NCBI RefSeq assembly: GCF_026571515.1
Contig: NW_026857880.1
Coordinates: forward strand, 496,001 to 560,000
DNA from: Ruditapes philippinarum
Lineage: Eukaryota
Length of the DNA stretch: 64,000 nt
Direction: 5' to 3'
Part shown: piece by piece, positions 13,833-56,100 of the stretch
Position numbering within the stretch: the stretch's first letter is position 1
How the letters are laid out: each line of letters begins with the position of its first letter
Notes under the pieces: generated by a model
What the model was told of the DNA's origin: nothing
Seen by the model: the letters and a program-made list of their open reading frames with translations, nothing else
Database searches by the model: none
Translations under genes and position numbers: made by a program

Positions 13833-16769
13833 TTTGATAAGAATATAGAAAGAACGTTATGTGTTTTCCGAAGTTTTGAAATAAGGAGCCTACAATTACA
13901 AGTAAAACTATTTACAAACTATGAATATCAAACTAAAGTTATCAACTATTTACGTACCATGCTTGTGTTTCGTCGGTTTTATTCTGAATTGCTTTCGATT
14001 CTTCGATGAATGTGATGACACAGCAACAAGGCAAATATAAAAACAGAGCGCGCTTCCACTGTATTTATACGATACCGTTTAATCACATGCACATGCTGGT
14101 TTGTTTCGCGTGTGTAACGCGTGTCCAAGTGACCTTCAATGCAGATTCACTGCGCAAAAAATGTATCATCAAAGTACAAATGTACTTCCTTTAGGGGGCA
14201 AAGTATGTATGTCAAGAGTGCAATAGCAAAAACTAGTACTGCAGTACTTGTATGATTTTGAAAATAACAGTAAATAGACACTTGAATGACGCGATATATG
14301 AAACTGTTTTAATATATATTTTATAATATTTGAATAAATTCATTTGATGATCAATAAAGTCAGAAGGGAGAAAATATACTTCTGAAACTTAAAGGTTCTC
14401 CAAGAAGTAGACAAAACAGAGACACCCTATATATAGGTATATGTTCAGTGTTCTATAGAAACGTTTGACGAAAAATATCATTATTTCAAATGTTTTATAT
14501 GTAAATTATGTATCGGCAATTGAAGACTTGAAGAGACTTAAGTTTACATGTCAGTTGAGCAAATTAGTTACGATTTCATGGTAAATGACTATACAAATAA
14601 TTTTATGGAAAGAATTTTCAAAAAGTTTGGACAGCGTATTGTATTTGATGCTTTTGCTACAAGCAGACGTATTGTAGTCCCTTACACAAAAACAATCCCC
14701 AAATAGAGTTGTCGTTCGTCCTCTTCAAAAGGATCGATAACAAGAATTTTGTTAAAACGAACAAAACATGTATTTGAACGTAGTAGATTTTAAGGAATAC
14801 AATCATATTGACGAAGGGACATAATATTTACATTGTCATAACATGTGTTGTTGTGTACAAATAATAAGTTTAATAAGTTTAATTATTATAATTGGAATTA
14901 TTGTATTGCCAACTTTCGAAGATAGTAATCGCCGCAAAAATGTTAACAAAATGCATAACTAACATTTTCTTAAAAGTAATATTAATATATTACAATACTA
15001 TTTTACTTACGCCGATAAACGGCCCGTCACAACATCACTTTCTGGTCAACGTTTTTCAGGTTGACACATCTGGCGTGTGATTAACGTGACACTGTGTCGA
15101 ACGCATAACTAGCGTGCGTCTTACTATTTGACAACGCCAGAAGAGTATTCCCTTTATATAATCCTGATTTACTCTAACACTTTGGTCGTCTTCGTCGGGA
15201 TCTTCTTCTCTGCGTGTGAATTCCCTCGATGTGTTCCGCTGTGTTTAAGTACAGTACATCTACTTGATACTTGGCTATAGCAAGCATATATAGCAAACTA
15301 AATCTTTCAGTATTTTCCATAGTAGGTGTTCTTTATGGGAGCCCAAAATCAAATGATTCTTGTTTTTAAATATGCATGGACGTTAGGAAAACGGTCAAAT
15401 GACGCTCATTGAACGCAAAAAGGACGTTCGTTGCACTTAAGTCACACGCTTTGTGCGCTTGAGGACCTTGCAGCTGTCAGTGAGTCGTTCACTGCAAAGA
15501 AACGATTAGTAACAATCAAATTTTTTTTATTGTTTTTAATATGTATATGGCGCATATTTGAATACATATTTTATGTCTGTTGAGAAATCAGTCTCACGTT
15601 TTATTATATAAATTTTCGTTTCATTCTAGATCTCGGATATTATTAAGTAACAGATATGAAAAGCTATACTTTGACTATTACCTTCTCTTAATTTATTTTA
15701 TTTATTGCCCTGCTTTATGCGGAAACTTGTTCCAAGGTTTCTATCATTAAGATAAGATACATGTTACATCGTTGTACATCGTTGTCAGAGACATAAGAGA
15801 CGGCCTTTAATGTATAAATCAAATCAAACACAGACTAATAAATATTATTATTTTTAATTTTTTCTTCATACTACTATTTCTAAATTCATTTCTATTGTCT
15901 AGATTTGTCGGACATTCATACAGTAATTGATTCGTTAATTACCTAGTACGAATTATGGGAGTTTGTTTGATTTATACGGGCTAGACGATAGCAGTATTCA
16001 TATTTCATTGACTAACTTCGATCATTTTTTACCAAATATGGCCATAGGGATACAAAGTCGTTTAAATCTGGAATCATTTGCTGAATCATTAGTCAACATT
16101 ATGAAAAAAAAAATGAAAAAAATAAGTGTAGGCAATTTCATAATTAGATTGGCACCTTAAATAATAAAACAAACAGATATAAAAGTAGCCCTTACTAAAT
16201 TGACAAGATGACTAGCAATAGATACTTAGACGTAAAAGAAAGGAATAAACAAATGAAACAGCTAAAGAGGGGCGTGTGTTTAAAAGTTTTTTTATTAGCG
16301 TCTTATTAACTTTTCTATCACTTGTTACAATTTTTGTTGCCCTACTTTCTGTAGGCACTGATAGTGTTTATCGAGATAAATGAATGGTTAAACAAAAGCA
16401 ACTTAAAGCATCTTTGTGTTCTTATATGACATTAGTGGGACATTGTTAGGCAGATTAAAAACATATTGCCAACCACGTAAATGACATTGTTTAATGTAAA
16501 ACAGTCGAAACTAATGGAGGTGAACTAATATATTAAAGACGGACATACTAGTAAACTCTTAATATTATTACTTATTATAATATGATTTAATTATTGCAGC
16601 ATGTGTCGTGGCAACAATACAGCTGAATATACTTTCTGTTACCATGTAAGATGAATTTCGTTATGTTCTGTTTTAATACAATTATAATACTTGTAACATG
16701 ATAAATAACAAAACAACTTTTAAGGTTTCGCTTTATTTATTTCACTGCAAGATCGATACACGTCAATTT

Positions 16770-17471: not shown

Positions 17472-20400
17472 TTATTTCAAAGTTTTTTCAGGAGGAGGAT
17501 TGTCGTTGCAACTTCCTTTGCAAATGAAGCACCACACTAAAAAGCAATTATACAATATATTAAGACATTTGCAAAAATCATAAATAAATTCATCCATAAC
17601 AAAATAAGAGATATTAAACGACGCCAGGTACAAAAGGAGTATATTTGATAACAATGACAAAATAAATTATCTTTCTTCCATATGCGAAAATTATATCAAT
17701 ATTCATGTATGAAATGTCTGTATATATATTTCAGGATCTTCTTTTAAATTTCTTGAAACATAATATATTGATTAAATTTAAAAGCACGTATCATTTTAGA
17801 TCATAAGATATATGGATTGGAAAACATTCTTTTACAATAACATGCTCTGAAAGATAACTTTTACGTTCTGTGGAATTTATTTTGCCTTATTACGCGCGGT
17901 CTTTCGATGCATAATAAATATAAATGTACATGTTCTTTTTTCTCATGAGAGTGACCGGTTTATAGTTTGCTTTATCATTTTCTCTCTTTATTAAGTATCA
18001 AGAGAAAAGTAATAAGCTGTTTTAAGTGAACCAAAGTCATGTCCTAACTTTAAACATTAATTGAATTTGTCATATAAGTGACAAATCTAAGTAAACAAAT
18101 ACAATGTAGACAAAAAGATACATACAACTCTGTTCTTCAAACGCTTGGGTTGCTCTCTTACTACGCATTGTGTAGTCTTTCTCAACAAACACCGACTCGT
18201 AATCTTTACAGAAGGCAGCTATCCGTTCTCCGTACATTTCCACCTCTGACGGTTCTACAAACGTCTTTGACGTGCACTTGAATGTCTGCCTGATTTCATA
18301 GTCACCATTGTCCTGAATTAAAGCACAAGGTGTTGATACAAAAACATTTCATACAAATAATTGATTGATAAAGTTAGAAGTTGAAATTACTATTTGTTTA
18401 GCAAATAAATCTACAATATTCATTTGGATAACCTGGCCCGATATAAAAGGCAAGTATGGTCATCATTGTTCCGATCATGTTTTGATGTTCGAAAAATTTT
18501 ACCTCATAACAAACTTATTTATGCATTTACAATCAAAGTCAACTTGATTATATTCAGACAAAGACTGCAACTTACTCTTTCTGCTTGGTAAAGAATATCC
18601 TTCAAGTATTCCATTGAATGCCTAGTTTTCTCTATGTAACAAACGCCTTTCTCAACAAGTTTAATGACACTGTATCCCTAAAATGTAATACTTTGTTTTA
18701 AATCTCAAAATAAATACTTGATTTAAATAGAAAGGTTGTTTTGTTTGCTGTTGTTTTTATTTCTAGAGAGAGTTATAGGAACAAAATAATGAGATGGGAC
18801 TCTTCTGTTCATTAGAAATAACGAATGGTACGACATATTTTGAATAAATATTCTCTAAGGAATTTAATCTAATAGATTATGAAGTAATTTTTTGGTATGT
18901 GAACATACCATATATAGTTGCTTATTGAAGCAAATATGCAACATTTAAATTAACATGTAAACATACCACAGAAAAGTCATGGAACGCAATAGATGGCGTG
19001 ACTTTCTTGGATGTAACCTTGGCGACGGTTGCTATTATAAGTTCGTCTTCCTCGTCAATCATCACATCCTCGTAGGCCCTTATAGCATCTCCAAAGTGTC
19101 CTACCACTCTTCGATACTGAAAGAAGTATAAATATTAGCAGCTATTATCGTTTCCATAAGTCACGTCTTTTATTTTAAGAGGTTGATTTCCGGATGATAC
19201 AAAAGTACCTTTTAAAAAAAAAAACGCCGCTTTTGATTAATACATTATCATGAAATATTGCCTTAATTCATCTTGTAGTTAATCAGCTTTGGACTATTCA
19301 ATATCTAAAGAATTTCTCTTTGCAGTATAAATGCATTGTGAAATCATGAATTTAAATGTAAACATGGATGCCACTTTACTGATAAGTTTCAGTGTTGTAT
19401 AAATTTGATTCTGATAAAGATACCAATGCCTAAACCGTTTCTAACATCATTAAAGTTGTTCTGAAACAAAAAAAATCCTGTTAAGAACAGATTAGATGAT
19501 TATCTGAACATTACAAAATATTTGGAAAATGAACTCACCTCTGGTACTGCTTCGATCCTTAAGATAACACAGACAAGAACAAAAATGATATATCTTGAGT
19601 TTTCCTGTGAATATAACAAAGAATTACTTAACAAAATAAATTTGAAATGACAATGTGAATTTTTTTGCAACTATACGCCTGGAAATAAGTAAACCCCCCG
19701 GCATTTTGCATCAATTTTGACATGACGACAACTGAATTTTTAAATTTTATTTGGGCAATGGTACGAACCACCTGTAGTCAACTTGCAACGACTGGAACAA
19801 GCTCTGCACCAAGAATGGTAAAATTTACCTCATAATCGCATTAGACGCATTACTGGTAGTATGACGGTTACACACGTTATTTACAATTTGGCTACATAAT
19901 GTCATTAAAGATTACATCGTCGTCATCATCGTCAACATTTACCCCCCAAAAAAACGTTCAGTACATGTTTTGTAAACGTTCCACCACCATACTTATAAAC
20001 ACTTACATTTCTGGTAAAATAACACAACATATTTGCTTATGATTCAATAATTTGGTTATGAATAAACTTAACTAATAAATGTCCTGGTTTATAACTTTGG
20101 TATCACTACTTATCAAATTACTATTTCTTAGCTCAATTAAGTCGCCATCTCCTGATAGTGCTGTCAATCAAAACCAATTTTAAATTTCCGGGGTGTGCTT
20201 AACTTATTTCCAGGTGTATATATTTATGTTAAATGTTCTTGTAAATATCATGAAGTTCGAAACTTGACATGATGCTTATAAAATAAGACTTAATTATTTC
20301 ATATTGTCTGTGAATTTAATACATATGTAAAATGAAGTTTGAACTCATTTATCTACAATTAGGATGATTTATTTGTTAGTAATTAACATCATATAGTAAT

Positions 20401-24286: not shown

Positions 24287-27200
24287 CTAATTCCTATCGT
24301 CTGATGGTTGTGATAGGTCTGTTGGTCGTGAGTTACAGTTTCCAATACAAAACCCACAGTTCACTGTTATAAAGGAGAAACAAATCAGTGTAACATGTAT
24401 CTACTAGATTCAACAAAATAACAAATATTCATATATCTTCTTACTTTAATTCATTATCTTAGTAAATAGGTACTCCACTAAGGCTGTCTGAAATGACGTG
24501 ACTGGAAATACTTTGACGTCATGATATTTTGTACCATTTAATGAACGTCTGAACCAATAACTTATGTTATAAGGCTTTTTGATCTCAGTGCGGCTCATTA
24601 TGCAAGAAAATCCGATATAAATAAGATTAAAATCTAAAATATGCGAGTTCACATATAACAATTAGTTAAGAGAGAAGTGTAAGAGAACAAATCATGTTTG
24701 AAATAATAAGAAATCTCAGAATTAAAACGTTTCTGCAAATAAAGATAGGTTATTAAATTTCTCCACTTACTTGCAGCTACAGACATTGTCCTGATTGACC
24801 GCTTTCTTTTACTTAGGAATTTTCGTGTCGAGAACACAACGTCGTCATCTTTACAGAATTCAGCAATCTTTTCTCCAAAACGAGATATGTCTGATGTCGG
24901 GACAATCTCATTTGAGATACAGGTAAATGTTTGTGTAATGTCGTAGAATCCATCTCTCTGAAATGATAATGTACGTATCTCACCATTAAATTTACTCGCA
25001 TCTAAACATTACATTCACTCGCATCTAAACATTACATTTACACGTATCTCACCATTACATTTACTCGTATATGTACATTACATTTACACGCATATGTACA
25101 TTACATTTACTCGCATATGTACATTACATTTACTCGCATATGTACATTACATTTACTCGCATATGTACATTACATTTACTCGCATATGTACATTACATTT
25201 ACTCGCATATGTACATTACATTTACTCGCATAGGAACATTACTTTAACGCGTATCTCATCTTCACACTTACATTAATAAATATTATCCTCCAATTGTTCT
25301 ATGTTCTGTCGAGAAACATGTTTTAATCCACAACATAATTATGTTCTTTACAGTCACCATCACTGTATACATATAAACAGTTTTTCCTAATTTTTATTTG
25401 TTTGGGTCGTCAGACCAAACAAATAATGGTAGCGAAATTTCAGAGTCTAATGTTGTTAATTGCAAATGCCGAAAGTAGTCCACTTTTTTTGAAGCGGTTA
25501 CTTCCCTTTTGTATGTACACTAAAGCCGAAAAATTCAGGGGAGATCACTGCGTAAAGATGGTCAAAGACAGGCGCATCAATTTTCAAGCAATGTAATTCC
25601 CGAATGGTCGAAGATTTCTAATATTGTTTTATTGTATTTTCTGATCGAAAATAACTAAATACAAAGCGGACATTCAATCTCTGACACAGAAGTTTACGAC
25701 AAACCTAACAACAAGTAGTTCTCAAAACAGCTTAAAACTAGCGATTTAAAAGAAAGAAATATTTTATTTTGTTACAAGTATCCAACAAATTACAACGCAT
25801 TTAAAGTTAAACAATAGCGTTGGCTTATAGAATTGTCAATAAATGCACAATTACAAATTACGCGGATGAATATGATTTTATCAATGAAAATACTATTTAT
25901 TACCGAATACTACACAAACCGAGTAGTGGAATTTATAGGTTCTACATGTCGGACTGTTTGGGCGAGAGGATTTTCGCTAAAATATTTACTTCAATTTTAA
26001 ACAACAGGTTTACCCTGAACAAAATACCTCGAAATTAATAAGGATTACAAACCCGAAATGCAATGGAAGTTCTAAATTTAGAATGACTTGATATTATTCA
26101 GATTTTGTGTGTAACTTCTCCGTGGTTCAGTGGTAACGCGCTCGCTTAGTGAGTGAGAGGTCTGGAGTTCGAATCCCAGTCGAGGAAACTTTTTTTTTTG
26201 TTAAATTCTTTTTTAAGTGTTTTTGTTAAGGAAGTAGCCATGATATGCAAGGATAAAGTGTGGCTGTCGTAAAAAATGAACATAAATGATTTTTTGATGC
26301 AACTCTAGTTATGCAGAATTCCGTATGTATCAAACTCTGGTGCCTTGCAAAATGAACTATAATACATAAAAATAAACCTATACAGGAAAATGCATACAGA
26401 TATACAGTTGATTTAGATTGCAAAGATCAGAAAATACCACAGAACTTGCAGCCCTTTGATTCTTTATAAATATAAATGCTTATAGTAAGCTCCAGGATTA
26501 TTTACATCTGTGTTAAACAACAGTTAAAGTCGTTACAAGCCCTAATTTAGAATAATATGGGTTTCTTCAGCCCGTTCACATATAAATTCACCGTGGCTGA
26601 AGGGTTTTCGGGCTCGCTTAGGAAGCGAGAGGTCTGGAGTTCAAATCCCAGTAAAGGTAACTCATTTTTTTCAAATTGTTAAAGTCAAATAAACATTGGA
26701 TTGAATATCAGTGTTGCAATTAGTCTTATAGCCAATTTAGTACAATTAAAACGCTGGAAAGCATTGATGGCACTATACATATAATCTCACAACTTGCACC
26801 TTTCTTACATTCTGAGACCCAAACAAATTCAGCGCCTTCTGTGCTTTGATTATATAATGTTTTCGTTCTCTCGTTTAGCTCAATAGGGAAATTAATAAAT
26901 TTGTAAACAAGGGGATGCTGGTTCGATCCTCGGGCAAGTCGGAATTTCTCCATGGCAAATGATCTTAGACATTGAGCCTAATGGTCATTTGTTTCTGACA
27001 TCTGGTCCTATTTAAGTAAGCTTCTTGCAGAACAATTACCGATTTGTTATCCGGGAAAGCCAGTAAGGTGGACTGAGATATGACCAAAACTATGTAAAAA
27101 TTAGAGTAAAAACAACAAAAAACCTTTGAGTCAAGTGAATTGATGTTGAATGAGACGCAAATTGTATCCCATATTTTCTTATAATGTATAGAATAGTAAA

Positions 27201-37011: not shown

Positions 37012-40000
37012 TTAGTCCACCTTATTTGCAATGACTTCTTCCAATTTGTTGATTTGATTGAAAGGGTTACATGGAGGTACAAGAGTGACCATCTTTGACA
37101 TCTTACCCCCGCGGTTGTATCCTTGGTTGGCAGAGTCCGTAACTGGCTTCTCTCTGTAACATTTAATGATGAAAATATAAAATTGTGCTCATGTTTATAT
37201 GACCATTATTGATATATGAAATACAAGTCTAAGAAAATAAATCAATATACTTTAAATTTTTTTTACTGAAAGTAACTTTAATCATAATAACTTATCCACA
37301 TGCATGTTTCACTTTTATATCAAATATACAGCTACAGTTGACTGTTTTTCATAAAATATTGTTTGCTCAAGGTGTTTATTCAAAATTTATGAAAATCATT
37401 TCAATCATAATTATACTTAAAGGGAGACAACTCAAATTTCTTTATCAAAATTTATATACAACCAAGTCTTCCTGTTCCCTACGAACTAACTGTTTTTTAA
37501 ACGTTTACCAAAATTGTTTTACTGTAACACGAAATTTAAATTATTCTTTCAAATTCTGAGCGTTTAGCTCAAAGAGAAAAAAGAATCAAAATGGTTTCAA
37601 CAACCAGAATGTTTTACCTGTAAACAAGCTAAACAACAACAACATAGAAAATGTTTGCCCTTAACCTTTCGAATTTGTGATATTGATGTGTTTTGCTTTG
37701 AATTTGAAACAGACTATCAAATGTGTAAGAGATTTCAATATCAAAATAAACTAGAATGTCAGAACAGTGTACTCATCTATTCTCTGTGCTTGAAAGTAAC
37801 ACCAGAGCCTTGATAATTAAAAAAAATAAGTTCAAAAAGGGTCATACTTCTATTAAAATCCAAGTTATGGAGTTATAGTCCCTGGCCAATGACCTCCTAT
37901 TTTTCTCTCAAATAAGTTTGTGAAGTTTCAATCCATTACCTTCAGCTTTGGAGATACCAACTTGCATGCAAAAACAACCTAGGTTGAAGCTGATGCCTCT
38001 ATGAGTATAACAGCTCTCCCTATTCTTCAAATAGTTGGGCTAAAAATAAAACTTTATGTACCGACCCTGTTGCTCTATACTGGTTGTAATGGCATATCAC
38101 TCACAGTTCCACAAATTTAATGTTAAACTTATGATACCTATAATGCCTAGACAAAAGAGCAAAATAGTTGCAAAAAAAATTGAAAAAGAAAAATGTCATA
38201 CTTATGAACAAGTTTAGTAGTGGCCTGACTGTTTGGAGGGTGAGGTGCACTGTGAGCGGGGGCATACTGTCCTCTAAATAGTGTACAACCCTGGTAGCCA
38301 GGTATGTTTGGTTTACTGAAATATAAAAAATATATACATTTATAAATATGATTATGTGATATCTGAACATGGTCTGAACAGTTTGCTTCTCTCACAGTGC
38401 TTATCCTTAAAATTTTCCTTACAAAATAACGGTTTTGTCTAGATTTAAACATCCATCCAAAATAGGAATTTGCGATATTCAGACTGAAATGAGCCGCACC
38501 ATGACAAAACCAACATAATGGGTTTGCGACCAGCATGGATCCAGATCAGCCTGAGCATCCGCGCGGTCTGATCAGGATCCATGCTGTTCGCTTACAAGCT
38601 CTATTACAAGTAGAGAAACTGATGGCGAACAGCATGGATCCTAATCAGAGTGAGCAGATGCACAGACTGGTCTGGATCCATACTGGTCGCAAACGCACTA
38701 TGTTGGTTTTGTCATGGCATGGCTCAAATTAATCTCATGACAAGTAACGAGCATTAGAAATGAAAATTTTCACATTGTTCAAAGACTAATTTCAATACAA
38801 GTAACAAGTAATTGAAATGAGAGATATGTCCATTCTGTATAGTTTTAGCAGTCTGGTTTTAGGCCTGAATCAATCTATAAATGTGGTGTTTCATCATTTT
38901 TTTGTGAATAAAATACAGTACATTTGTACTTATATAAATTTTTTCAAAATAAATCAGACTTTCATAAAAAATGGGACTTAAATACTGAAATCAAAAGGAA
39001 GAACTTACTGTGATGTTTCACTATAGCGTGGTATGTTGACCCGTTTCACTGTAAAAGGTTTGAACTCTATACTAGCATTGTCCAACTCCTCCAGGTTCAC
39101 TGCCCCCACACCACCTCCATACCCTGGTATATGTTGTTTCCTAGGTGGCTGACTACAGCTACATATACAAAAAGCGCATGTATAAAGTTATATTCCTAAC
39201 ATTTCTAGGTTTCTAAAATGATTTGCAATATTTAATGTTGACATACAAATGACGCTTTTAAGGCTCCGTACAATTCGGGTACTGCAAATGGTATTGCACG
39301 ACCGTGCATATATTTTGAAGTGATGTCATTTGCATCATGAAAACTATGTAAAGACAACTAAATGTAAGCTTTACACTATTAGCGCGCAAATGAAAAATGA
39401 CTCTTTTTCACTTTAAACAGTCATTATTTTCACTATGTGATAAATAAAATATTATATCCGTGCAGGTTTATTACTGAATTTATTGAACTTGTGAATATAA
39501 TAATATATTATGCTTGCCAGAGGCTCGCATAATATGATTTTATTCAAATTGTTTTTTGTGTGTGCAGAATTAATAAGTACAATCTTTGATTTTCAAGACA
39601 ACACTTTGTTAAGCTACTAAATCTCTATTCAAACCATCATTATAAAATTGAGTGTGATTTAAGACTAAAATCTTAATTTAAAAAGGGTCAATAATAAGCA
39701 TTACACATAATCAGAAATAAATGGATAATTATAATACTACAAATGCAGAATGCTTACTGTGTATGTAAGAAAAAAAAGGATTTGTAACTTACAAAACAAT
39801 AGGAGCAGTCTTATAGTAAGCATTTCTTTTCTGAAACCAGTCCCATGATCTACCTGCATTCTGTAAATATCATGAATTATGTTTACTATTTATAGAAAAA
39901 ATAAATGCATAATCAAATTTCATGCCATGTGTATGTTCAAAGATGTAATTGCTCTACACTTTGTCATCAGGCAAACAATAATCTCAAGTCATTCATGCAG

Positions 40001-43000
40001 CTAATGATAAACTGCCTAAAGGTATCATTGAAGTATACTCAGCCACATACATCTACATACCGCAATGTATGGAATATCAAATTCCGAATGCTTAAACATG
40101 TTAAAGAAATTGAAGGTGTCATCTTATACAATGTAGAGCATCTTGATTATCATTAGCATGTTCTCCTATTTGACCAATACTTTATGTTTAAGAGAATGAA
40201 AAACTCAAGTGATAATAAATAGGCATGACATCCAGGGACATGTTGTAAAACATTAACAATAAGCACACACCTTAGCATACATAATACCAAATTTACAGAG
40301 TAACATCAATAAAGAATATCTTGTGTAGCATTAAGAATTGAAGTTGGAATAAAACTTTAAAGATGCTATCTTTGACTCAATTCATGAGCCATTGCCCAAA
40401 TCTACAACAAGGATTCTGGTGAAAACATGCACTTGGCTACCTTCATTCATCCTTTTACAGCCAGGTGTAAACATAATAAAATTCAAAATGCCTAGTGATC
40501 AATGTCCAAACCACAGTTGTATTGAGCAATCAATTAAGGTACATTTGTAGTTAGTATGAATAACTATGAATCATTGTGAAAAATCAGCATATTATGCCTT
40601 CTTCTGGATTTAACAAAGTTTAAAATCTTAAAGGAATTAAAAGATCACACTCCTTTAGAGTTTCAAAGTTTTATAAAGGATATAAATGATCACACGGAAC
40701 AGGGAATACTTTATCACATACGTATACATGTTTTAAGTATTAGATTAAATAATCTGTTTATCACAAATAACTGAACAGGTTCAATGTGAAGGTTATAATG
40801 GACTTACCTGCCATTCTTGTGCAGCAGGATCATATCTATGTAAGGTATATGTTTGTGAGATCATATCTTACCTGCCATTCTTGTGCAGCAGGATCATATC
40901 TATGTAAGGTATATGTTTGTGAGATCATATCTTACCTGCCATTCTTGTGCAGCAGGATCATATCTATGTAAGGTATATGTTTGTGAGATCATATCTTACC
41001 TGCCATTCTTGTGCAGCAGGATCATATCTATGTAAGGTATATGTTTGTGAGATCATATCTTACCTGCCACTCTTGTGCAGCAGGATCATATCTATGTAAG
41101 GTATATGTTTGTGAGATCATATCTTACCTGCCATTCTTGTGCAGCGGGATCATATCTATGTAAGGTATATGTTTGTGAGATCATATCTTACCTGCCACTC
41201 TTGTGCAGCAGGATCATATCTATGTAAGGTATATGTTTGTGAGATCATATCTTACCTGCCACTCTTGTGCAGCAGGATCATATCTATGTAAGGTATATGT
41301 TTGTGAGATCATATCTTACCTGCCATTCTTGTGCAGCGGGATCATATCTATGTAAGGTATATGTTTGTGAGATCATATCTTACCTGCCATTCTTGTGCAG
41401 CGGGATCGTATCTATGTAAGGTATATGTTTGTGAGATCATATCTTACCTGCCATTCTTGTGCAGCGGGATCATATCTATGTAAGGTATATGTTTGTGAGA
41501 TCATATCTTACCTGCCATTCTTGTGCAGCAGGATCATATCTATGTAAGGTATATGTTTGTGAGATCATATCTTACCTGCCATTCTTGTGCAGCAGGATCA
41601 TATCTATGTAAGGTATATGTTTGTGAGATCATATCTTACCTGCCATTCTTGTGCAGCGGGATCATATCTATGTAAGGTATATGTTTGTGAGATCATATCT
41701 TACCTGCCATTCTTGTGCAGCAGGATCATATCTATGTAAGGTATATGTTTGTGAGATCATATCTTACCTGCCATTCTTGTGCAGCAGGATCGTATCTATG
41801 TAAGGTATATGTTTGTGAGATCATATCTTACCTGCCATTCTTGTGCAGCGGGATCATATCTATGTAAGGTATATGTTTGTGAGATCATATCTTACCTGCC
41901 ATTCTTGTGCAGCAGGATCATATCTATGTAAGGTATATGTTTGTGAGATCATATCTTACCTGCCATTCTTGTGCAGCGGGATCATATCTATGTAAGGTTT
42001 ATGTTTGTGAGATCAATATCTTTCCTGCCATTCTTGTGCAGCGGGATCATATCTATGTAAGGTATATGTTTGTGAGATCATATCTTACCTGCCATTCTTG
42101 TGCAGCGGGATCGTATCTATGTAAGGTATATGTTTGTGAGATCATATCTTACCTGCCATTCTTGTGCAGCGGGATCGTATCTATGTAAGGTATATGTTTG
42201 TGAGATCATATCTTACCTGCCATTCTTGTGCAGCGGGATCATATCTATGTAAGGTATATGTTTGTGAGATCATATCCGGTCTCTCCTCCAGTGTCGAGGT
42301 TGGTGCCCACTGCTTTGGAGGTAACATTGTATCCCATGGCACTTCTTCAAAAGCTCTAATAGATAAAAAATTATATTTTTTTCGATATATTATAACTATC
42401 AATTCAGATTATATGTAGTTATGTCATAAGAATTGCCAGTCATGTGGTTTGAAAGTCCAGTTAGGGCAAGCCAATTTTTAAAGTTCTAATTATAGATAAA
42501 AGGTTATATTTTTTTCTAAAATTTATAACTTTAAAATTCAGACTAGTAATCTCAAGAATTGCTAGCAGCATGGGTTTAAATTCAGTCAGGGGCAAGCCAT
42601 TGTTTCCTTGAGCAAGACACTTTACACTAATTGCTGAGTAATTACTGGGTCCTGAGGAACCAATTTGAGTGTTTCTGTACAAATGTATTTCCAAAGCAAA
42701 CAAGCTAAAATAAATAATGTTTAAGAACTATTTAAAATATAATATGTCACACTTAAATTATGGTCATGATTAAATCAATCTTGATTAACTAGCCTGCACA
42801 GTTAAATATGCATGTATGAAGTCTATGTTTAATGAAGGTCAAAAGTGGCGACAATTTAACTTCATGCAATTTATAAGCAAAAGATATGAATTTTGAGCCA
42901 AATATAGGTAATTGTGCATGAGAAACTTAATGTACAGGACAAACCAGAACAATATGAGAAAAGGACATAGCCCTGAAAAGAGCTTTTCCGGGTGCCAAGC

Positions 43001-46000
43001 AAAGGTAACGACAGTTAACTTACTTTTGAGTTGAAGTACTATATTGGTATTTCATTGCAAGATGATCACGGCCCTCTTTGCTCTGTTCTGATGGAGGCTT
43101 TTCTACAAACATTGACTGAAATAAAAGGGAGATTAAAAAGTTGATTATGGAAAATCTTTCACAATCATTGTAATATATGATCCAATATAAGATAAAATAA
43201 TATCAGATTCTGAAGAAAGATCCTGGATTTAATAATAGCAAATAAATAATAACATGACATATCATATGCTTTCAAAATTAAATTTTAATCTTTAATTGAT
43301 TCAATGTCTCCTTCTTTGACATTGTAACATACATATAACAAAATAGAAAGAAAACTTATTTTGTTTAATAGTAAAAGAATTTCATTTTAAAAAGTGCTCA
43401 AGACATTCACATAGATATTGAATGTGCCAAGCATCATCTTATACAACTAAACAAAATCATTTCATTTTTTATAAATAACTAATTACATATTTCATAGTTT
43501 TACATTTTATTAGCATCTTGAAATATTTGCTTTAAAAACTGATGACTGAAAATAAATGGATTTTATCTTTCTGACCAAAAGCAGTGAATTAAGTTTAACT
43601 TGGCTATAAACGGTTACATGTATCAGTAGATCAGGCCTGCTACATGTACATCATGTATATGTATGTGACTGTGTTAACAGTTCACCAAGTATTTCAATTT
43701 AGTATTTTGATATTGATAATTATCTCTTATTCTCACAAAAAGAGAGTGGACAATTTCAAACCAGGAAAATTGTGAATACAGTGATCGGTTTGATAATGAT
43801 AGTAAATATGTTGTTTATTTTACAAAGTTGATAAAGAAAAACAGTGTAAACCTTTGCTCTTCTCATATCCAAAGCTTCTTTGGGAGGGTGTCTTGGGTCA
43901 TGAGCACTTGTCCATCCTTTGTAAAGAAAAAAGAATATACTGATTAGCAAATGATTATAATAATATTATCACTGATTATTTTTACCAATATTAACCCTTA
44001 ATGTTTCAATTTGATACTTATATCTTATTTCTAATCTAATTTTCACAATAATTCTAACAAGAGCTGTCGGTAGGACAGCAACGCTCGACTATTCTTAGTG
44101 CTTGATAGTAAAAAAAAAATGCTTGATAGAGTTACCTCCTCCTATTTACAGGTTGGGGTCATGATGGTGAACAAGTGTGTTAAGTTTCAAAGCCATATGT
44201 CAATGGACTTTGAAAATATTTGAACTATTACAAAAACTTTAACGTAAATTCTAAGTCGAACAAGAGCTGTCGGTAGGACAACAACGCTCGACTATTCTTA
44301 GTGCTTGATAGTAAAACAAAATGCTTGATAGTGTTACCTCCTCCTGTTTACAGGTTGGGGTCATGATGGTGAACAAGTGTGCAAAGTTTCAAAGCCATAT
44401 GTCAATGGACTTTGAAAATATTTGAACTATTACAAAAACTTTAACGTAAATTCTAAGTCGAACAAGAGCTGTCGGTAGGACAGCAACGCTCGACTATTCT
44501 TAGTGCTTGATAGTAAAACAAAATGCTTGATAGAGTTACCTCCTCCTGTTTACAGGTTGGGGTCATGATGGTGAACAAGTGTGCAAAGTTTCAAAGCCAT
44601 ATGTCAATGGACTTTGAAAATATTTGAACTATTACAAAAACTTTAACGTAAATTCTAAGTCGAAAAAGGGGCATAATTCTGTCAAAATGCTTGATAGAGT
44701 TACCTCCTCCTGTTTACAGGTTGGGGTCATGATGGTGAACAAGTGTGCAAAGTTTCAAAGCTATATGTCAATGGACTTTGAAAATATTTGAACTTTTACA
44801 AAAACTTTAACGTAAATTCTAAGTCAAAAAAGGGGCATAATTCTGTCAAAATGCTTGATAGAGTTACCTCCTCCTGTTTCCAGGTTGGGGTCATGATGGT
44901 GAACAAGTGTGCAAAGTTTCAAAGCCATATGTCAATGGACTTTGAAAATATTTGAACTATTACAAAAACTTTAACGTAAATTCTAAGTCGAAAAAGGAGC
45001 ATAATTCTGTCAAAATGCTTGATACAGTTACCTCCTCCTGTTTACAGGTTGGGGTCATGATGGTGAACAAGTGTGCAAAGTTTCAAAGCCATATGTCAAT
45101 GGACTTTGAAAATATTTGAACTATTACAAAAACTTTAACGTAAATTCTAAGTCAAAAAAGGGGCATAATTCTGTCAAAATGCTTGATAGAGTTACCTCCT
45201 CCTATCTACAGGTTTGGGTCATGATAGTGAACAAGTGTACAAAATTTTAAAGCTATATGTCAATGGACTTTGAACATATTGAAACTATTACAAAAACTTT
45301 AACGTAAATTTTAAGTCAAAAAAGGGGCATAATTCTGTCAAAGTGATTGAAACAGTTACCTCCTCCTGTCTACAGGTTGGGGTCATGATTGTGAACAAGT
45401 GTGTAAAGTTTCAAAGCCATATGTCAATGGACTTTGAAAATATTTGAACTATTACAAAAACTTTAACATAAGTGGTTAAGCCGACGCCGACGCTCGGGTG
45501 ACTGCAATAGCTCTACTTATTCTTATCGAATAGTCGAGCTAAAAAGGGGCATAATTCTGTCAAAATGCTTGATACAGTTACCTCCTCCTGTCTACAGGTT
45601 GGGGTCATGATGGTGAACAAGTGTGCAAAGTTTCAAAGCCATATGTCAATGGACTTTGAAAATATTTGAACTATTACAAAAACTTTAACGTAAATTCTAA
45701 GTCGAAAAAGGGGCATAATTCTGTCAAAATGCTTGATACAGTTACCTCCTCCTGTCTACAGGTTGGGGTCATGATGGTGAACAAGTGTGCAAAGTTTCAA
45801 AGCCATATGTCAATGGACTTTGAAAATATTTGAACTATTACAAAAACTTTAACGTAAATTCAAAGTCGAAAAAGGGGCATAATTCTGTCAAAATGCTTGA
45901 TACAGTTACCTCCTCCTGTCTACAGGTTGGGGTCATGATGGTGAACAAGTGTGCAAAGTTTCAAAGCCATATGTCAATGGACTTTGAAAATATTTGAACT

Positions 46001-49000
46001 ATTACAAAAACTTTAACATAAATTCTAAGTCAAACAAGAGCTGTCGGTAGGACAGCAACGCTCGACTATTCTTAGTGCTTGATAGTAAAAAAAATGCTTG
46101 ATAGAGTTACCTCCTCCTGTTTACAGGTTGGGGTCATGATGGTGAACAAGTGTGCAAAGTTTCAAAGCCATATTGTCAATGAACTTTGAAAATATTTGAA
46201 CTATTACAAAAACTTTAACGTAAATTCTAAGTCGAAAAAGGGGCATAATTCTGTCAAAATGCTTGATAGAGTTACCTCCTCCTGTTTACAGGTTGGGGTC
46301 ATGATGGTGAACAAGTGTGCAAAGTTTCAAAGCCATATGTCAATGGACTTTGAAAATATTTGAACTATTACAAAAACTTTAACATAAATTATAAGTCGAA
46401 AAAGGGGCATAATTCTGTCAAAATGCTTGATAGAGTTACCTCCTCCTGTTTCCAGGTTGGGGTCATGATGGTGAACAAGTGTGTAAAGTTTCAAAGCCAT
46501 ATGTCAATGGACTTTGAAAATATTTGAACTATTACAAAAACTTTAACGTAAATTCTAAGTCGAAAAAGGGGCATAATTCTGTCAAAATGCTTGATAGAGT
46601 TACCTCCTCCTGTTTACAGGTTGGGGTCATGATGGTGAACAAGTGTGCAAAGTTTCAAAGCCATATGTCAATGGACTTTGAAAATATTTGAACTATTACA
46701 AAAACTTTAACGTAAATTCTAAGTCGAAAAAGGGGCATAATTCTGTCAAAATGCTTGATAGAGTTACCTCCTCCTGTCTACAGGTTGGGGTCATGATGGT
46801 GAACAAGTGTGCAAAGTTTCAAAGCCATATGTCTATGGACTTTGAAAATATTTGAACTATTACAAAAACTTTAACATAAGTGGTTACGCCGACGCCGACG
46901 CTCGGGTGACTGCAATAGCTCTACTTATTCTTATCGAATAGTCGAGCTAAAAAGGGGCATAATTCTGTCAAAATGCTTGATACAGTTACATTCTCCTGTC
47001 TACAGGTCGGGGTCATGATGGTGAACAAGTGTGCAAAGTTTCAAAGCCATATGTCAATGGACTTTGAAAATATTTGAACTATTACAAAAACTTTAACATA
47101 AGTGGTTACGCCGACGCCGACGCTCGGGTGACTACAATAGCTCTACTTATCCTTATTGAATAGTCGAGCTAAAAACTGGAAACAAAGTGATTATACCCTC
47201 GGAAGCATTAATCATTGTGATCCCTTGGAAGCATTAATCACAACAAAATTATTTGAAAATTGCAGACTCGGTTTGATTGAGTCTGTACATGAGGGATAAT
47301 GAATAAGTGCAACATCCCTCACGCCCCCAAGTATATTCATGATATTGAAGCACTGATAAATGCTATAAAATTTAAAACTTTAAGATTAATCTGAAATATA
47401 TTCAATTTGCTTTGAGTGTGAGTTAAAAAATAGCTTCTCACACCCTTCTAATATTATATATTTAATAAGATGGATTGAATCTTTGATTTAAAAACATGAT
47501 TATAAAACAAGATGAATGAATATTTGTTATCTTCCACAGACATCATAAATCTTAAATTGGAGATCATTATCTAACTATGAATTCAAATATTATTTATCTA
47601 AACTTATTGCAATTATACATACGGTAAATTGATATTACCAGTAAATCATTATCTTAAATTTACAACAGATACTGCATGTCCTACTTAAGATATAAGATCA
47701 CAATAAATACCAAAACAAAACACTTTACTTTGTATATTTCTATCTGTAAATTAAAGATGGTTCAATAATTGATTTGAATATATTAGACTGCTATTGTGAA
47801 TTCTTAAAATGTCAATAGACCATTGCTACATCAGATTATACCATGTATTGATTGTGTGCAACTGTGAAATATTTGATACATCTGATATTTATCATTTAAG
47901 GTATGAGCCACCTAATGCATTACCTCCACTTTGAAGAGTACTCAAATAGGCTAGAACTACTGTCAACTGCATTGAAACTGAGGGGTGCTGGTTCAAGCCC
48001 CAGAAGAGGCAACTTTTTTTTTCTTTTTTTTTTTTTTCTTTGATCATTTTTTGTGTCTCTCAGATCACTCTTGATAAGAAAAAAGTGTTTCATTTAAATT
48101 ATAAGATTATTATTGGTATTTTTTTTTCTAAATTGTGCAAAATTTATTATAAAATATGGTACCTGATATTTTCAAAGTCTAATAAAATAAAAACAAGACG
48201 GTAAAAGTATTTTATATTTGACAAGTGCATCCAATATACTTTTAAGAAAATTTATCCAAACTTTGAAAACAGCCCCTGATTTGAGTAAATTTTAGGGATA
48301 TTTTGAATAAGGCCCTCCAAGTAGACAAATGATCAAACAACTACTTAAAATGGGTGGGGTAGGATAACATTTATATACATATTTCAAACATTTTGAGTAG
48401 AAACAATAATTTTGATGGGTCATTTGTTAGCTGAATGCTATTATTTGTTTCTAAAATATTTTCTATAGGAAAACATTATTTCATAATGATTATATAATAG
48501 AATAATTAGAGTTTCTAATTTCTAAAAAAGAGCCCTTCTAATAGCCAAGTTTTACTTTAGAAAAATCTCCCTAACTTGCAAACCATACGGTAAACTTTGT
48601 TTAAATTTTGCATTCTTGTGTCTTTTAAGGTATATAACTGACCTATGTTGTCAATTTTATAGTTCCTTATAGTGCCCATTAGGAGGCTCATACCTTAAAT
48701 TTTATATCATTAAAAACATTTGTTGCCATAGTTATTTATGAGGTGTTTTTTCTTTAAAATAATTTCAGATTCGCCAAGGTGATACATATTTACTTACACG
48801 CACAATTGAAGTAAAAGAGCAAATAAAAATTTCAGCTTCAAATGTAATTGCAAAATCATACACATAATAAATAATTTGTAAGTTCCCTGAGGACTGTGTT
48901 GATTTTTTGTCTATGCTGATGTTACCCAATATTTAATTTTATTAGAGCTACATGTATCTTGTGGCACCTTGTCTGCTTATATCAGTATCAAAAACAGACA

Positions 49001-49829
49001 ATATAATCTAAATTTTAGCATTAATTGTCTACTTGGTGAAACTCGTGATTTGTATTAATTAGTAATCAAAACAGCCAATATTATATATAAATCAACATTG
49101 CAGCATAGACAGTGTTACTACATGTATGTTATGTGTCAGCCCAAATCTGTCACTTTAAATTATGATGTAAATCAGTCTTAACAAATGAATAGAATTCTTA
49201 AAAATTGCTTAAAATTATTAAAACTGGGATCAATTCTATAAAGATGTGCAAATGTGCATACTAAATACAACAGTATATCTAATATATTAATACCCACCAC
49301 CTAGCTGTGATCTTATCCATATGTCAGATGTTTTTCTGCTATTCCATGCAGAGGGTGCACCTGGCTCATAGGTATTGGATCGACGCAGCTCAGGGGGCGC
49401 AGCCCTCTCATTCTTCCTATCCGAGTCTTTTGCTACGGGCGGTGCAGATTGAGGAGTATCACTTAATTGAACTAAAGATTTAATTTTCTGGTGACCCGTG
49501 TTGCGATCAACATCCCCACCAGCACTGACAAAACCTGATACAGGGTCAACAATGTTATCGTAACTACGGTATGGTGCTTCAGCCCTATGATCCCCATTAT
49601 CATTCCATTTTTTAAATGATATGTTTTTCAAATCTTCCTGAAAAGAGTCTACATCCTGGCGACCAGTTAATGAGGGAAATTTCATGTGCCGTATGCGCCT
49701 CTTTTCCTCAATCTGATGCACAGCATGACCACCTGCATTTGCATCAGTGTAAAGATAGGTTTTAAAATGTGGTCTACTTCTAAAAGTAGAATCTGCTAAG
49801 ACAGGGCCTGAAGAAATTACTTCTGTCAT
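37012..49829 (-). CDS. SPATA48: SPATA48 / SPMIP7 (C7orf72)-like sperm/ciliary microtubule inner protein, 433 aa, 8 exons
   Basis: Exons 49829-49298, 43916-43852, 43115-43024, 42355-42217, 39860-39793, 39158-39009, 38315-38202, 37153-37012, phases consistent (1302 nt). Motifs recalled from the vertebrate protein: [48 protein letters not shown] twice, [11 protein letters not shown]. Confidence 0.88.
38489..38727. mobile_element. Palindromic MITE (same family as 23100-23305)
   Basis: Same termini and internal palindrome. Confidence 0.85.
40803..42275 (-). repeat. 64-bp tandem array (23 copies) built from the SPATA48 exon-4 3' end plus splice donor
   Basis: Unit on the minus strand: ATATGATCTCACAAACATATACCTTACATAGATATGATCC(T/C)GCTGCACAAGAATGGCAG|GTAAG; copies nearly identical. 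Confidence 0.97.
44056..47175 (+). mobile_element. Helentron-associated (HINE-like) element concatemer carrying a 164-bp satellite
   Basis: Head AACAAGAGCTGTC..GACAGC..GCTCGACTATTC; tail (ACGCCG)n...GAATAGTCGAGCTAAAAA (subterminal inverted repeat); 164-bp tandem units in between. Confidence 0.85.
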
Positions 49830-50169: not shown

Positions 50170-53100
50170 ATGGCTGCAAAGAAACGAAATGCCCAAAGTA
50201 CCGATGCTTCAAATGGAAAATCTAGTTCTAGTAAAGCAACTAATAGACCAAAATTAAGCGGGAAAGCAAAGTCAAAAGATGATGAACATTCTAAGAGGAA
50301 TGCCAACTCAGTACTGTACAAGATTTGCTTGTTTGCATTGGGTAGGCATCATTTTCTTCTACTCGACTTATTTGTTCTTCTGTCTATCATAATTATAATA
50401 GCTTGTCGTGAATTAAAAAATAAAAACTTTATTTAACTTTCCCTTGTACTTATTGGAAGAATTTTGACAACTTGTTTTTATTTCAATAAATAATATAATT
50501 GCAAGTATTTCCTGAAGTTCAAATTTATTTTTCTTCCTGAATAAGAATTATAATGGTTCTTTACACTTGAGACAATAAGCACCACTGAAAGATCCGGTTG
50601 TCTCCATAATGAAGAGCTATCATAAATTAAGTTATTGGAAGTAGCCAAAAGTTCTAGCCGTATGTGAGTCATGTACAGCTAGCCTGGACACACTGTATAC
50701 TTTCTAGCCGTACGGCACTTTTTAAAATTATATGAAAGTCGAAAATGCATATGTTCTTTTGCGTCTTGAAACAAGGATTTTAACCAAGGACCTGCGTTTG
50801 TCCCTAAACTTTATCAATAAAAGTGTCAATTATAGTGACATAACGCACTATACAAAGTACATTGTATATGCGTATGCAAAGTAACTATGATTAAATAATA
50901 AATAGTTTAAGTTATAATGTTTTTGTTTTTTATGATTATATAAGATTTGTTGTTGTTTTTTTTGTAATAAAGATGAATTATTAAATCAATTTTTGTTGAT
51001 AAATTTAAGCACATGGAATGAATAATCATAACGGCCAAAGAAGCTTGTTTCATAACGGCATGAACAGAATGGAATGAATAAATAAATAGGACATCATACA
51101 TGTGAAATCTCCCACTTTTAGCGGGAGACTACCACTTTCTGCAGCCATATTTTCAAAGAATTTTCTTAAAAGAAGGGGTATTTTTACAAATTCAAGAAAT
51201 CTACCCATTTTTGATTTCAGAACTTCCTTCTTTGGTTATTGCAAATTCTAAAATCTCCCTCTTTTTGAAGAAAAATCTCCCACTTGATCATTGAAAAAAG
51301 TTCACATGTTTGGGACATTGAAAAAAATATGAGCAACTTATAGCAATTGCTATAATTGTATTTTTAAATAGATAAATTTTGAACATAAAATCAAAATCAA
51401 TTAGCCTAAATTAAAGCCTATAGTACAGAGACTTATTAGGACTTTTAGAATGCATTTCACATACGGAAAATGCAAACTTTCCTTACTGTATAATGATGGA
51501 CAAACTTCTACTGTCAGTAATTGACGCAATTATCAGAACACAACAACAATTATTTTCAGTGCTTTTTCATTATTAAAGGTGTTGAAAATTAAACTTATTG
51601 AACCAAAAAAGGACCTTTATAATAATTATATATTACAATGTTATTTAACTGCACCTAAACACGCCATCTGGAGATGACAACGATCAATATGATTCTGTAT
51701 TTAGCCAACATCTCTAAAAAAGTAAAAATACGAAGACAATTGCTGTTTCCTGGTTAAAATCCTCGTTCAAACCATAAAAAACATATGCATTTTCGACTTT
51801 CATATAATTTTGAAAAGTGCCGTACGACTAGACAATGCAGTGTGTCCAGACTAGCAGTACGTGACTCATGTATGGCTAGAACTTTTGGCTAGCCGTACTG
51901 GCCGGTACGGCTAGCCACTTCCTAATGAGCCAACTTCCTAGTGAGCCAATAATATGAATTTGTTCAAATTAATAATTTTTTTTTTAAATGATATCATTTT
52001 TACGATGACAGCTGTACCTCAGTCAAAGAAAAGATTTGCTAATTTTATTTCTCCAACATGTGAATATTAATACCAGCAGGTTACAAATGACTGTGATAAA
52101 AAACATTTGTTATTGAATTATGGCTAATTAACTCTGTAACTCACTTTTTTTCTGTTATGAATTGAAACTGTGATGTCAGATTGTATATATATTTAAGTTA
52201 AATTTAATCTGTACTGAGTAGCTATTCTTTATCTTGCAGCTTTGGTGATTGGATTTTGTCACAGGTAAATAATTTATTATTATCAAAAATTATTAAACAT
52301 ATTTATATTTGAACTTGAATACTTGGATTTGGCTTATATTTATAAGTATTTATAACTTGCTGTAATACTGTGGAATTTCCTGTCAAAGTCAGTTAATTTT
52401 GCTCTGACAATAGAAGTTGCATATATTGTGCTGATGTACTATAATTAAGTATATCTTTCAATCACACTGAAAATATTTTGTTATCTAATATCAGTTATAA
52501 ATGACAGGTATGAGTAAAGAATCAAGAATTTGTTTCGCAATGATTTATGGAGCTTAAATGAATATGTTTAAGCTCGATTGTGAACACTAAATATTTTTTT
52601 TTGATATTATTAATATGTAAATGTTTTTTACATTTTGTTTTCAGAAATCACATAGCTAATATGTTTGAAAGAGATAGACATTTTTCCCATCTGTCAACAC
52701 TAGAGAGAGAGCTCGCCTTTAGAACAGAAATGGTATGCTTACAGATTTTCATCAATTTCAGTAGATATTTTTGAATTACAGTTGGACCATGCATAGATTA
52801 GTGCTGAATATGTTTTAAACACAATGCCCACACTGCTGTTGGCTTAAACACTGCCAGGGACTTTGGATCTTATGATGCTAGAAAGCCGTCTAGCTAGCTT
52901 GCTAGAGGTCAGTGGTTCTTCTTTGGTATCAATCTTGCCTGAAATAATGCAATGAGGGGCTTCTATGGTCTTCCTTCTCCAGAAAAACTGACTTATATTT
53001 CCCAAACAAAAACTTTGCTTTTAAGTGATTAAGTTTTAGCATAGATAACTTGATTTATGGAGCATAGATAACTTGATTTATGGAGCATAGATAACTTGAT

Positions 53101-56100
53101 TTATGGAGCATAGATAACTTGATTTATGGAGCATAGATAACTTGATTTATGGAGCATAGATAACTTGATTTATGGAGCATAGATAACTTGATTTATGGCT
53201 TAGAAACCGTTGATTCAGAGCCTACCTAATTGTTATGGTTCACATTATTCCAAATGCTTTCAATTGTCAAGCAGAATTTGGATATATCTGTGCGTAATGG
53301 CTCACCATTGCATTGTACAAACATAGTCTCAAAACAAAAACAAACAATTTAATGATATTTTAACTTAAACAATTTTTTCCTTTTTATTTGTAGAAAAAAA
53401 TAGTTTTAGATTAGAATACCAAAAGGCCTCAAGTCTTGCATACACTAGAAGAACATAAGAAACCTTTTCATTTGAATTCTTAAATTGTAAAATAAATTAC
53501 TAGATACATGTACTTCTTTCATGAATCTTCGATCATAAAAATTCACATACATTTTATTTTAAGCCACATTTTAACTACTGTCATCAAATGTATTTTTTAA
53601 CTAATTAGAATTATTTTAAAGAAATAAGCCTTTTGACTAGAAAAGAAAACAACAAATAATTAAAGAATTGTCATAATACCAAAATGTTTATTAACATTCC
53701 ATGTATTTAAATGGATGTTTATTTTTATGTTTCACTGGTTATACTATTGTGGTTATCTTTTAATGATAAAGGTTTTTGTTTTAAAACTGTTAGTAAATAT
53801 CCTTAATTGTATAATTTATTACTCTTTGATTCATATCTAGTAAAATTTACAATGCTATCGTTGATGTATGTTGATTTGATGTAGAGATTAAACTATTGTT
53901 ATTGACAAGGGTATGGCGTAGGTTTCACACACCTTTGATACATGATAGGTTTAAATGTAGCTTTAACAGACTGGGAGCATGCAATGTTCGGATCATGTTA
54001 CATGTTTAATAACAGTAATGGCATTCTTCTGAACATAATTATTGAACGTTGTCTCCATCTATGACCTCAAGGTTATTAACAGATGCTTGTTTATTTTGTT
54101 TGTTAATTTATATGGATTAATATTTTACAAAAGGCTCTTTGCTTTAACTCTAGCCAAGTGTTTATTATAATTTATTTACATGGATTAATATTTTATAAAG
54201 TCTTCTTGGCTTAAACTCTGCTCAATTGCATTTTTCCTTTCCAAATTTTTTTGTAATTATGTCATACTTGCTGAAAAATTGGTTTTTGGTTTTTCTTTTG
54301 TTCTATTTAGGTGGTAAAAGATAATATTTACAAAGCAGTGCTTTTTGGGGGGATGAAATGATGGCAAGATCATGGAAATGGAAAAGTTGCATCATGGTGA
54401 GGGGAGGGAAAAATTAATTCTGCTTGACTGTGCTTGCAGGCATTATAAATGCTCCTTTGTGTGTGTGTGGGGGGGGGGGGGGGGATTTTCATTTCCACTT
54501 GTGGAAAAAAATCAGACCTAGTGACTGCATATGTGGCTGCAAAGTAATAGTATTTTGATTTCGAAATACCTTATTCCACTAAAATGCTACTCTGTATCCT
54601 TATCAACACGAGTCTTCTATTCAAGTGACGATTAAAGAATATTGTTTTATATTGTAGGGTCTGTACTACTCTTACTACAAGACTATGATAGAATCACCAA
54701 CATTTACAGATGGTTTATACCAGGTCATGAATGACAACATCACAGAGTTTCCTCTCACAATTAATACTCTTAAAAGATTTAACTTATACCCAGAGGTAAG
54801 TTGAACTCACCGGAATTCATTATTGTATCATATTAGGGCCACCATGGCAGAGAGTTAAGGTATTTCATACATCAAGTATGTCACTGAATATAAATCTGTT
54901 GCCTCTCACTGCTTTGGATTCCAACAATGTCATGAACTTGAATTATTTAATGTGAGGTGGCAACTCAACAAGCTTGTAATGTATGTGGTTCTACTTGTAT
55001 CTACCTGCTTGATAACTTAAAATAATACACCATAGGGCACATAGATTGATTTAAACTTGGGGAAGGGGACTTTGACTTTTCCATCAAAGAAATTTTGCCA
55101 GACAAAGTTACATGTGAATTGTTTTAAAAATCCACTTGTTTTGTCATTTTATTGAAATAAATTTGGATTTAGTTTTAATTTAAATATCTATTGCTTTAGA
55201 TGGTTCAACCATTAATTGTTCTAAATTAGTATATACAGTAGATAATTGATAAATATACAGTCATGTATTCTTATAATACTGCATGTTTGTAACATTGCTA
55301 TGCAATGGATAATTGTAACATATTATAAAATTTTATATACACAGCTGCTGTTAATTTACGAAGAATCTCACTTTTTTCTCTAAAAAAAAGATGCTTATTT
55401 GCTGTTTTATAAATTTGTTATAAATATTTCTGACATGTTATATGGCCCTATATAAACAGATGTTTGCAATATAACCCTCACCTAGTGGCTTGGGTTATAT
55501 TTCCAAACAATAGTTTATAAAGGGCCATATAACCTGTCAAAAATCATTATAACTAATATCATAAAACTATCATATTATCAACTGTAGAAAATAAATAATC
55601 ACTTGATTTTACATAATTTTTTTGTTCATAGTTAAATAACTTTAAGTTGAAGTATCACATTAATCTTATTAATTGGATCTTCTGATCAATATACTGTACA
55701 TATATCAGAAATCTAAGAAGAATTTATTTACATCATTCTGTGAATCATAAGTTAAACTTTTTTCCGTTATAAATTGAATATCTAACTATATTTAATTAGA
55801 TATATTTGTCATATCTGTGTTTTGTAGGTAGCTTTAGCTATTGGTTATCGAGCATATGAAGCTATTAATGCAGCATTTAATAGACCTACAAAAATGTGTT
55901 GGCGTGTAAATCGTGGAGAAGGTCTTAGTCCCGTCCAAAGTTGCGAAGGTTTGTTGAATAGATCAATAAAATTTCCATTCCTTGTTATTCTCCATATGCA
56001 TAAAGGTCACCCATGAAAATTTACATGTGTGGGTACTTTATTAATAAAAACCCAAATGTTTTGCATGCTAAATAATTTATAAAAAAAAATTGTTTACTTA

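Follow-up and report, generated by a model that had tools for sequence, protein, structure and literature searches.

The window (i.e., the whole 64,000-nucleotide stretch of Ruditapes philippinarum DNA analyzed here) carries the gene SPMIP7/SPATA48 on its minus strand. An eight-exon GT-AG model, in which exon 4 ends at the first of its repeated donors (donor 1), translates exactly to XP_060597503.1 (SPMIP7-like, Ruditapes philippinarum; 433 aa), with coding exon 1 giving a 100% match to that protein. The SPATA48 family (Pfam PF15073) is matched with an E value of 1.1e-28 and 100.5 bits, against a cut-off of 27. The exact translation and the Pfam match confirm the gene identity proposed in an initial annotation of this DNA. 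Seventeen homologues were 55 to 92% identical over full-length homology. The coding exons, all on the minus strand, lie at 49298 to 49829 (exon 1), 43852 to 43916 (exon 2), 43024 to 43115 (exon 3), 42217 to 42355 (exon 4; 139 nt, phase 0 end, stopping at donor 1, CAG/GTAAGA), 39793 to 39860 (exon 5), 39009 to 39158 (exon 6), 38202 to 38315 (exon 7), and 37012 to 37153 (exon 8, including the stop codon). Intron 4 measures 2,356 nt from donor 1 and 947 nt from the last donor, and its unique part occupies 39861 to 40802 (-). According to the parts of two studies drawn on here, SPMIP7/SPATA48 belongs to the PYG-module microtubule inner proteins located in the A-tubule of sperm, and its loss impairs spermatogenesis (PMC10973386, PMC11834534). 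Compared with the known SPMIP7/SPATA48, the clam protein shows no difference; the tandem array that lies across the end of exon 4 alters the intron only.

Several other features were observed in the window. A DPY19-family gene lies head to head with SPMIP7 (49829 on the minus strand versus approximately 50171 on the plus strand), with likely start codons approximately 340 bp apart, and an exon at 52616 to 52732 (+) matches Pfam Dpy19 (E = 3.5e-9). Exon 5 of SPMIP7 begins with AATGCAG/GTAGAT, in which a donor-like word follows the first 7 nt (39860 to 39850 [-]); three sequencing runs (X1, X2, and X3, described below) carry another base at 39852, inside this word. Intron 1 contains a 3-kb block of 164-bp satellite units (44049 to 47175), which by their size presumably resemble the bivalve BIV160 family, and intron 5 contains a high-copy dispersed repeat (39256 to 39575; summed contig depth of >100,000 in X3). 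Four adjacent open reading frames (ORFs) at 10188 to 13856 (-) read like what we take to be a frameshifted non-LTR retrotransposon, with endonuclease and reverse-transcriptase motifs. Related ORF pieces (..EIRQTFKC..GERIAAFCKD..) occur at 4358 to 4606, 18070 to 18348, and 24649 to 25008 (-). Near-identity between the first two, which lie 13.7 kb from each other, suggests a tandem gene or segment duplication, and the third had no Pfam match.

Tandem arrays make up approximately 6.8 of the 64 kb, and 1 of the 15 in the window touches an SPMIP7 exon. This is a 64-bp array of 23.0 copies (98% matches; score, 2799; 40803 to 42276) according to Tandem Repeats Finder (TRF); parsed into units, it is a minisatellite of 23 units at 40803 to 42275 (-), of which unit 1 is coding and units 2 to 23 lie in intron 4. 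On the minus strand, each unit corresponds to the last 59 nt of SPMIP7 coding exon 4 plus GTAAG. All 23 units start with ATATGATCTC, and 22 end with CAG/GTAAG, the exception being unit 4 (CAG/GAAAG at 42025/42024; changed base, 42023); the donor word is kept in 21 of the 22 downstream copies. Donor 1 (GTAAGA) is at 42217/42216, and the last donor, donor 23 (GTAAGT), is at 40808/40807 and continues into the unique intron. Both the unit anatomy and the coordinates of the array, donor 1, and the last donor were thus as first described, on the evidence of TRF and unit parsing. A second array in the window, a 23-bp unit repeated seven times with 100% identity (53038 to 53198), begins approximately 300 bp into the intron after the Dpy19 exon, takes in no exon end, and is another very young array.

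Differences among the 64-bp units were of two kinds. Three recurrent variants, all transitions and each shared by 3 to 12 units, define five unit types at three sites. All four combinations of sites 35 and 41 are present, and site 41 shows a gradient along the array, with C in the first five units and T in the last five. The other differences are private and confined to units 4 and 5, where three non-transition differences fall within 25 bp (41999 to 42024 [-]): the GT-to-GA donor change at 42023, one extra T at 42016/42015 that makes unit 5 65 bp long, and a TAT-to-TAA change at 41999. These are the sole non-transition changes in the array, and none is synonymous. The cluster, including GAAAG, may reflect local sequencing error rather than mutation. 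The mutated site reported near 42023 is therefore present in the assembly as a changed base in unit 4, while its reading as a mutation is in doubt.

To establish the status of the array in sequencing data, we relied on one search of public runs, which gave 24 runs, all as contigs, from which read counts and shares cannot be derived. Four runs (X1, X2, X3, and X16) were mapped onto 39000 to 40896, a region that takes in exons 6 and 5, the unique part of intron 4, and, from the array, the last unit together with 30 bases of the one before it. In the DNA-like run X3, the summed depth was 880 and 1247 on the unit and junction bins versus a median of 11 (4.6 to 24.3) on 14 unique bins, i.e., approximately 100-fold. 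No contig fitted two places, and the depth at 40868 to 40896 therefore spans the unit junction. The sequencing data thus show strong amplification of the unit, although summed contig depth is not a copy number, the figure of 23 is the count in the assembly, and X3 is possibly, but not necessarily, the sample behind that assembly.

The initial annotation had allowed for an assembly artefact, with only one copy in the reads. Such an artefact, i.e., one or a few genomic copies expanded into an array by long-read or consensus error, would agree with the private differences of units 4 and 5, which resemble uncorrected error in being clustered and non-transition, with the absence of X3 cover at 40600 to 40791, adjoining the array (a gap given no weight here), and with the finding that at most 12 of 17 sampled words were present in any run. 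However, the amplification of both the unit and the junction in X3 goes most of the way to refuting it, and the three transition variants, each of which is common to several units, also argue against it. We consider the artefact very improbable. The word shares were rejected as a junction test: 17 runs had 10 to 12 of the 17 words, close to the share of 0.63 to 0.66 expected without an array, and they cannot discriminate because X3, which has the junction, scores only 0.65. Runs X20 to X24, with word shares of at most 0.12, give no evidence.

Translation of the exon models showed that only donor 1 yields the intact 433-aa protein, as had been claimed. With donors 2, 3, and 23, for which the product was computed, translation stops at codon 288, leaving 287 aa; the premature stop precedes donor 2, and the outcome therefore holds for all later donors. 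The read-through that every later donor includes, with its stop at codon 288, lies at 42181 to 42216 (-), and the stop is at least 360 nt upstream of the last exon junction. Nonsense-mediated decay (NMD) follows a 50- to 55-nt rule for stops before the last junction. Exon 4 would be 203 to 1,548 nt long with the later donors versus 139 nt with donor 1, and the other internal exons of SPMIP7 are 65 to 150 nt. Regarding donor strength, donor 1 (GTAAGA) deviates from the consensus only at +6. The last donor (CAG/GTAAGT; 40802 to 40810 [-]) is a perfect match to MAG/GURAGU, in agreement with its earlier description as the better-consensus site running into unique intron, and is likely the original start of the intron. 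The last copy is the perfect one because the mostly exonic unit (59 of 64 nt) pushed the original +6 T away. Its use would require a 1,548-nt exon; it lies 1,409 nt from donor 1.

A scan of metagenomes for orthologues gave nine loci. Three (L007 to L009) were dropped, since they showed 52% identity over 27 residues, no match to another exon, and an open, bacterial-looking frame. Of the six kept, four, including a near-identical pair, carry an intron at that same codon, each with one donor (GTACAG, GTACAG, GTCAGT, and GTAAAT) and without a repeat of the exon end. The other two (L004, 160 to 360; L005, 1026 to 1226), which are near-identical, are without that intron, indicating its gain or loss along some lineage. 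These single-copy donors are no closer to the consensus than GTAAGA, which puts GTAAGA comfortably among donors that function.

The orthologues also bear on the suggestion in the initial annotation that the repeated AG/GT could serve intron gain by tandem duplication or recursive splicing. Each unit holds CAG/GT, and zero-length resplicing at its AG would give the normal mRNA; a model of intron gain from comparable arrays in amphioxus, called mirages, is put forward in the part of the source drawn on here (PMC3087553). The presence of intron 4 in four of the six orthologous loci, none with an array, shows that this intron existed before the array, which therefore did not create it. Among the four AGs of the unit, three give frameshifting mini-exons (28, 8, and 59 nt), two with an immediate TGA, and no in-frame internal exon was found from any AG of the unit. 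The duplication model needs exon sequence after the repeated AG/GT, and there is none here. The T content before the unit AGs is 0.15 to 0.25, versus 0.40 to 0.70 at the seven real acceptors. Upstream of CAG/GT itself, pyrimidine content is 0.45 (T, 0.15) versus 0.50 to 0.85 (T, 0.40 to 0.70) at the same acceptors, which bears out the remark made earlier that no pyrimidine tract is present and speaks against recursive splicing. We reject intron gain for this array and regard a role of the repeated AG/GT in either process as extremely unlikely.

Spliced contigs provide evidence on donor use. In X16, record 9 (578 nt) runs through exon 6, exon 5, and one unit (40808 to 40867) and then leaves the array, with 194 letters beyond the one unit that do not match the next unit. 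The top-bin depth of X16 (1.62) equals 5.52 × 12/41, i.e., the depth of 12 covered bases, and X16 therefore has no cover across the unit junction. Twelve bases also explain the top-bin depths of X1 and X2, whereas X3 requires junction cover; arithmetic bounds the junction cover at 11 in X1 and 15 in X2, versus exon 6 depths of 13.9 and 52.8, respectively. The same joint between exon 5 and the unit end (39860/40808) occurs in X2 (depth, 36; short side, only 24 letters) and is absent from X1 among the joints listed, the listed data consisting of 15 of 54 joints and 32 of approximately 4,200 pieces. X16 had been guessed to be a DNA metagenome, yet it has a spliced SPMIP7 contig and therefore contains transcript-derived sequence. 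No insertion across EWQ/x-GR was found in any of the 18 aligned homologues, including 7 from Logan assemblies. Two candidate proteins (P0034 and P0035; 91% and 88% identity) have no insertion at the exon 4/5 junction and were set aside, as neither is this species' protein.

Among the matches listed for the three transcript-like runs, we found no multi-unit spliced contig; contigs drop rare forms, and NMD would further thin the products of later donors. The animals behind X1, X2, and X16 may be without the array. The use of donor 1 on an array-bearing allele is therefore inferred.

Taken together, the locus is probably best read as a minisatellite across the boundary of exon 4 and intron 4, in which the first donor is likely used, so that the other 22 copies would be spliced out with intron 4 and an intact protein would result. 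A chance 64-bp duplication would have taken in the exon end and five intron bases, after which the array likely grew by unequal exchange (i.e., unequal crossing over or conversion). The 98% identity of the units, the shared variants, the occurrence of all combinations of sites 35 and 41, and the C-to-T gradient are as minisatellite turnover gives. Microhomology at the breakpoint amounts to one base only, and the mechanism of origin is therefore not shown. The spliceosome would take donor 1 through exon definition from the acceptor of intron 3 combined with first-come donor choice, which would favour a 139-nt exon, similar in size to the other internal exons, over exons of 203 to 1,548 nt. The array would be near-neutral. 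Against the use of the first donor stands the strength of the last one, a perfect consensus where donor 1 misses +6.

The initial annotation had proposed donor competition, with copy number tuning expression through NMD. Some transcripts would use donor 2, donor 3, or the last donor and stop at codon 288, NMD would follow, and array length would lower SPMIP7 output. The proposal is a reasonable one, given the perfect last donor and the leakage in CBS, the human case nearest to the clam array, and the position of the stop included by every later donor fits it. In the parts of a study of human arrays drawn on here, two extra donors are used in CBS and IFI6, and the one case that breaks first-donor choice in F7 involves perfect MAG/GURAGU pseudo-sites, such as the last donor in the clam; in F7 minigenes, only perfect pseudo-sites competed, taking 70 to 90% from a weak first site (CV, 74) (PMC1557585). 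In X1, the unit depth exceeds the exon 5 to 6 depth 3- to 4-fold, which is unexplained. Judging by its title, one paper reportedly ties the CBS variable-number tandem repeat to lower activity, which would likewise count for competition. A hairpin predicted at the unit junction would pair the GUAAG of donors 1 to 22 and not that of donor 23 (predicted unpaired probability, 8e-5; median of shuffled sequences, 0.012, with 2 of 200 shuffles reaching so low a value). However, an equal degree of burial (down to 2e-5 and 6e-5) is predicted for the donors in use at exons 1 and 5, and the fold therefore does not discriminate. Donor 1, missing the consensus only at +6, is unlike the weak F7 site, and the perfect site is distant. 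The leakage described in human genes goes to the nearest donors and so would not scale with copy number. Together with the lack of multi-unit spliced contigs among the matches listed and the prevalence of first-donor use among described arrays of this class, these points make donor competition unlikely.

Folding was also considered as the cause of first-donor choice and was rejected, as donor 1 was more open than the internal donors in only one of four settings. A still less likely extension is that array length sets the level of a sperm-tail protein in a heritable way, through leakage and NMD, with the perfect donor displaced by 1.4 kb, the predicted hairpin acting on the used donor, and exchange keeping the copies synonymous. 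Only if output did fall with array length would the locus gain in importance, as an allele whose length tunes the expression of a sperm axoneme protein in a farmed clam.

The preferred reading, a minisatellite spliced at its first donor, may be extended by exchange between the array and the coding exon end, the copies being filtered for protein compatibility or fed by synonymous exon alleles. The recurrent variants at unit positions 35, 41, and 53 are all synonymous third-position transitions (TAT/TAC, CCC/CCT, and GAA/GAG), a result with a chance of 0.026 among transitions, calculated post hoc and with n = 3. Two of the three sites are CpG, for which a hand estimate gives approximately 0.075 (0.5 × 0.5 × 0.3). 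The co-occurrence of all four combinations at positions 35 and 41 would agree with exchange, and the unit depths of X1 and X2, approximately 3 to 4 times those of exon 6, would fit single nucleotide polymorphism bubbles at the end of the exon. In contrast, the private differences are not synonymous. The synonymous pattern is a weak signal, and we regard such exchange as a tentative and rather unlikely addition.

Given these results, the array is most likely a molluscan example of a repeat type that is already known and is tolerated. It also warns annotators that arrays of this type resemble copies of an exon. Because the perfect donor comes last among the 23 and all wrong choices lead to the same stop, the locus offers a neat natural experiment on how an invertebrate selects its 5' splice sites. 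Our literature search, which left most subscription journals outside its range, found no mollusc or Ruditapes case of such an array.

Human minisatellites that start across an exon-intron boundary are described, in the parts of the source drawn on here, in F7 (IVS7; 37 bp × 5 to 9), IFI6/6-16 (25 pseudo-sites), CBS (IVS13; 15 to 20 units), LMNB2 (100 bp × 10 to 15), and PDGF (intron 4; 81 bp × 16 to 18); only the first donor is used in F7, LMNB2, and PDGF, whereas two additional donors are used in CBS and in IFI6, those in IFI6 being the nearest ones (PMC1557585). As far as these descriptions go, the clam array is like them in that the first unit spans the boundary, the donor is reiterated down the intron, and unit length and copy number are similar. 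The normal human mRNAs use the first donor, and the one-unit spliced contig of X16 would be the clam counterpart if it came from an array-bearing animal; the clam unit is exonic in 59 of 64 nt, whereas the F7 unit has 4 exonic bases of 37 (PMC1557585). The clam also differs from the human F7-type set, as far as described, in being a mollusc, in its perfect last copy, and in the slightly weaker donor that is probably used.

In amphioxus, the available parts of two reports describe mirages in Adh3 (10 to 72 bp), troponin C, the globins BflGb6 and BflGb9 (150 to 160 bp), and PGBD5 (60 and 108 bp), which reportedly leave splicing undisturbed (PMC3087553, PMC3902484). On these accounts, the clam array resembles the mirages as a tandem repeat of an exon end and a splice signal in an invertebrate. 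Instability between haplotypes was demonstrated for the amphioxus mirages and is a feature of theirs, and the clam has 23 copies versus 2 to 7 in the described globins and PGBD5. The 60-bp PGBD5 repeat abutting the 5' splice site, as described there, is very like the clam array. With head-to-tail units within the 10- to 160-bp range, a boundary-spanning first unit, and a reiterated donor, the clam array has the structure of the donor-spanning minisatellites and belongs to this known class.
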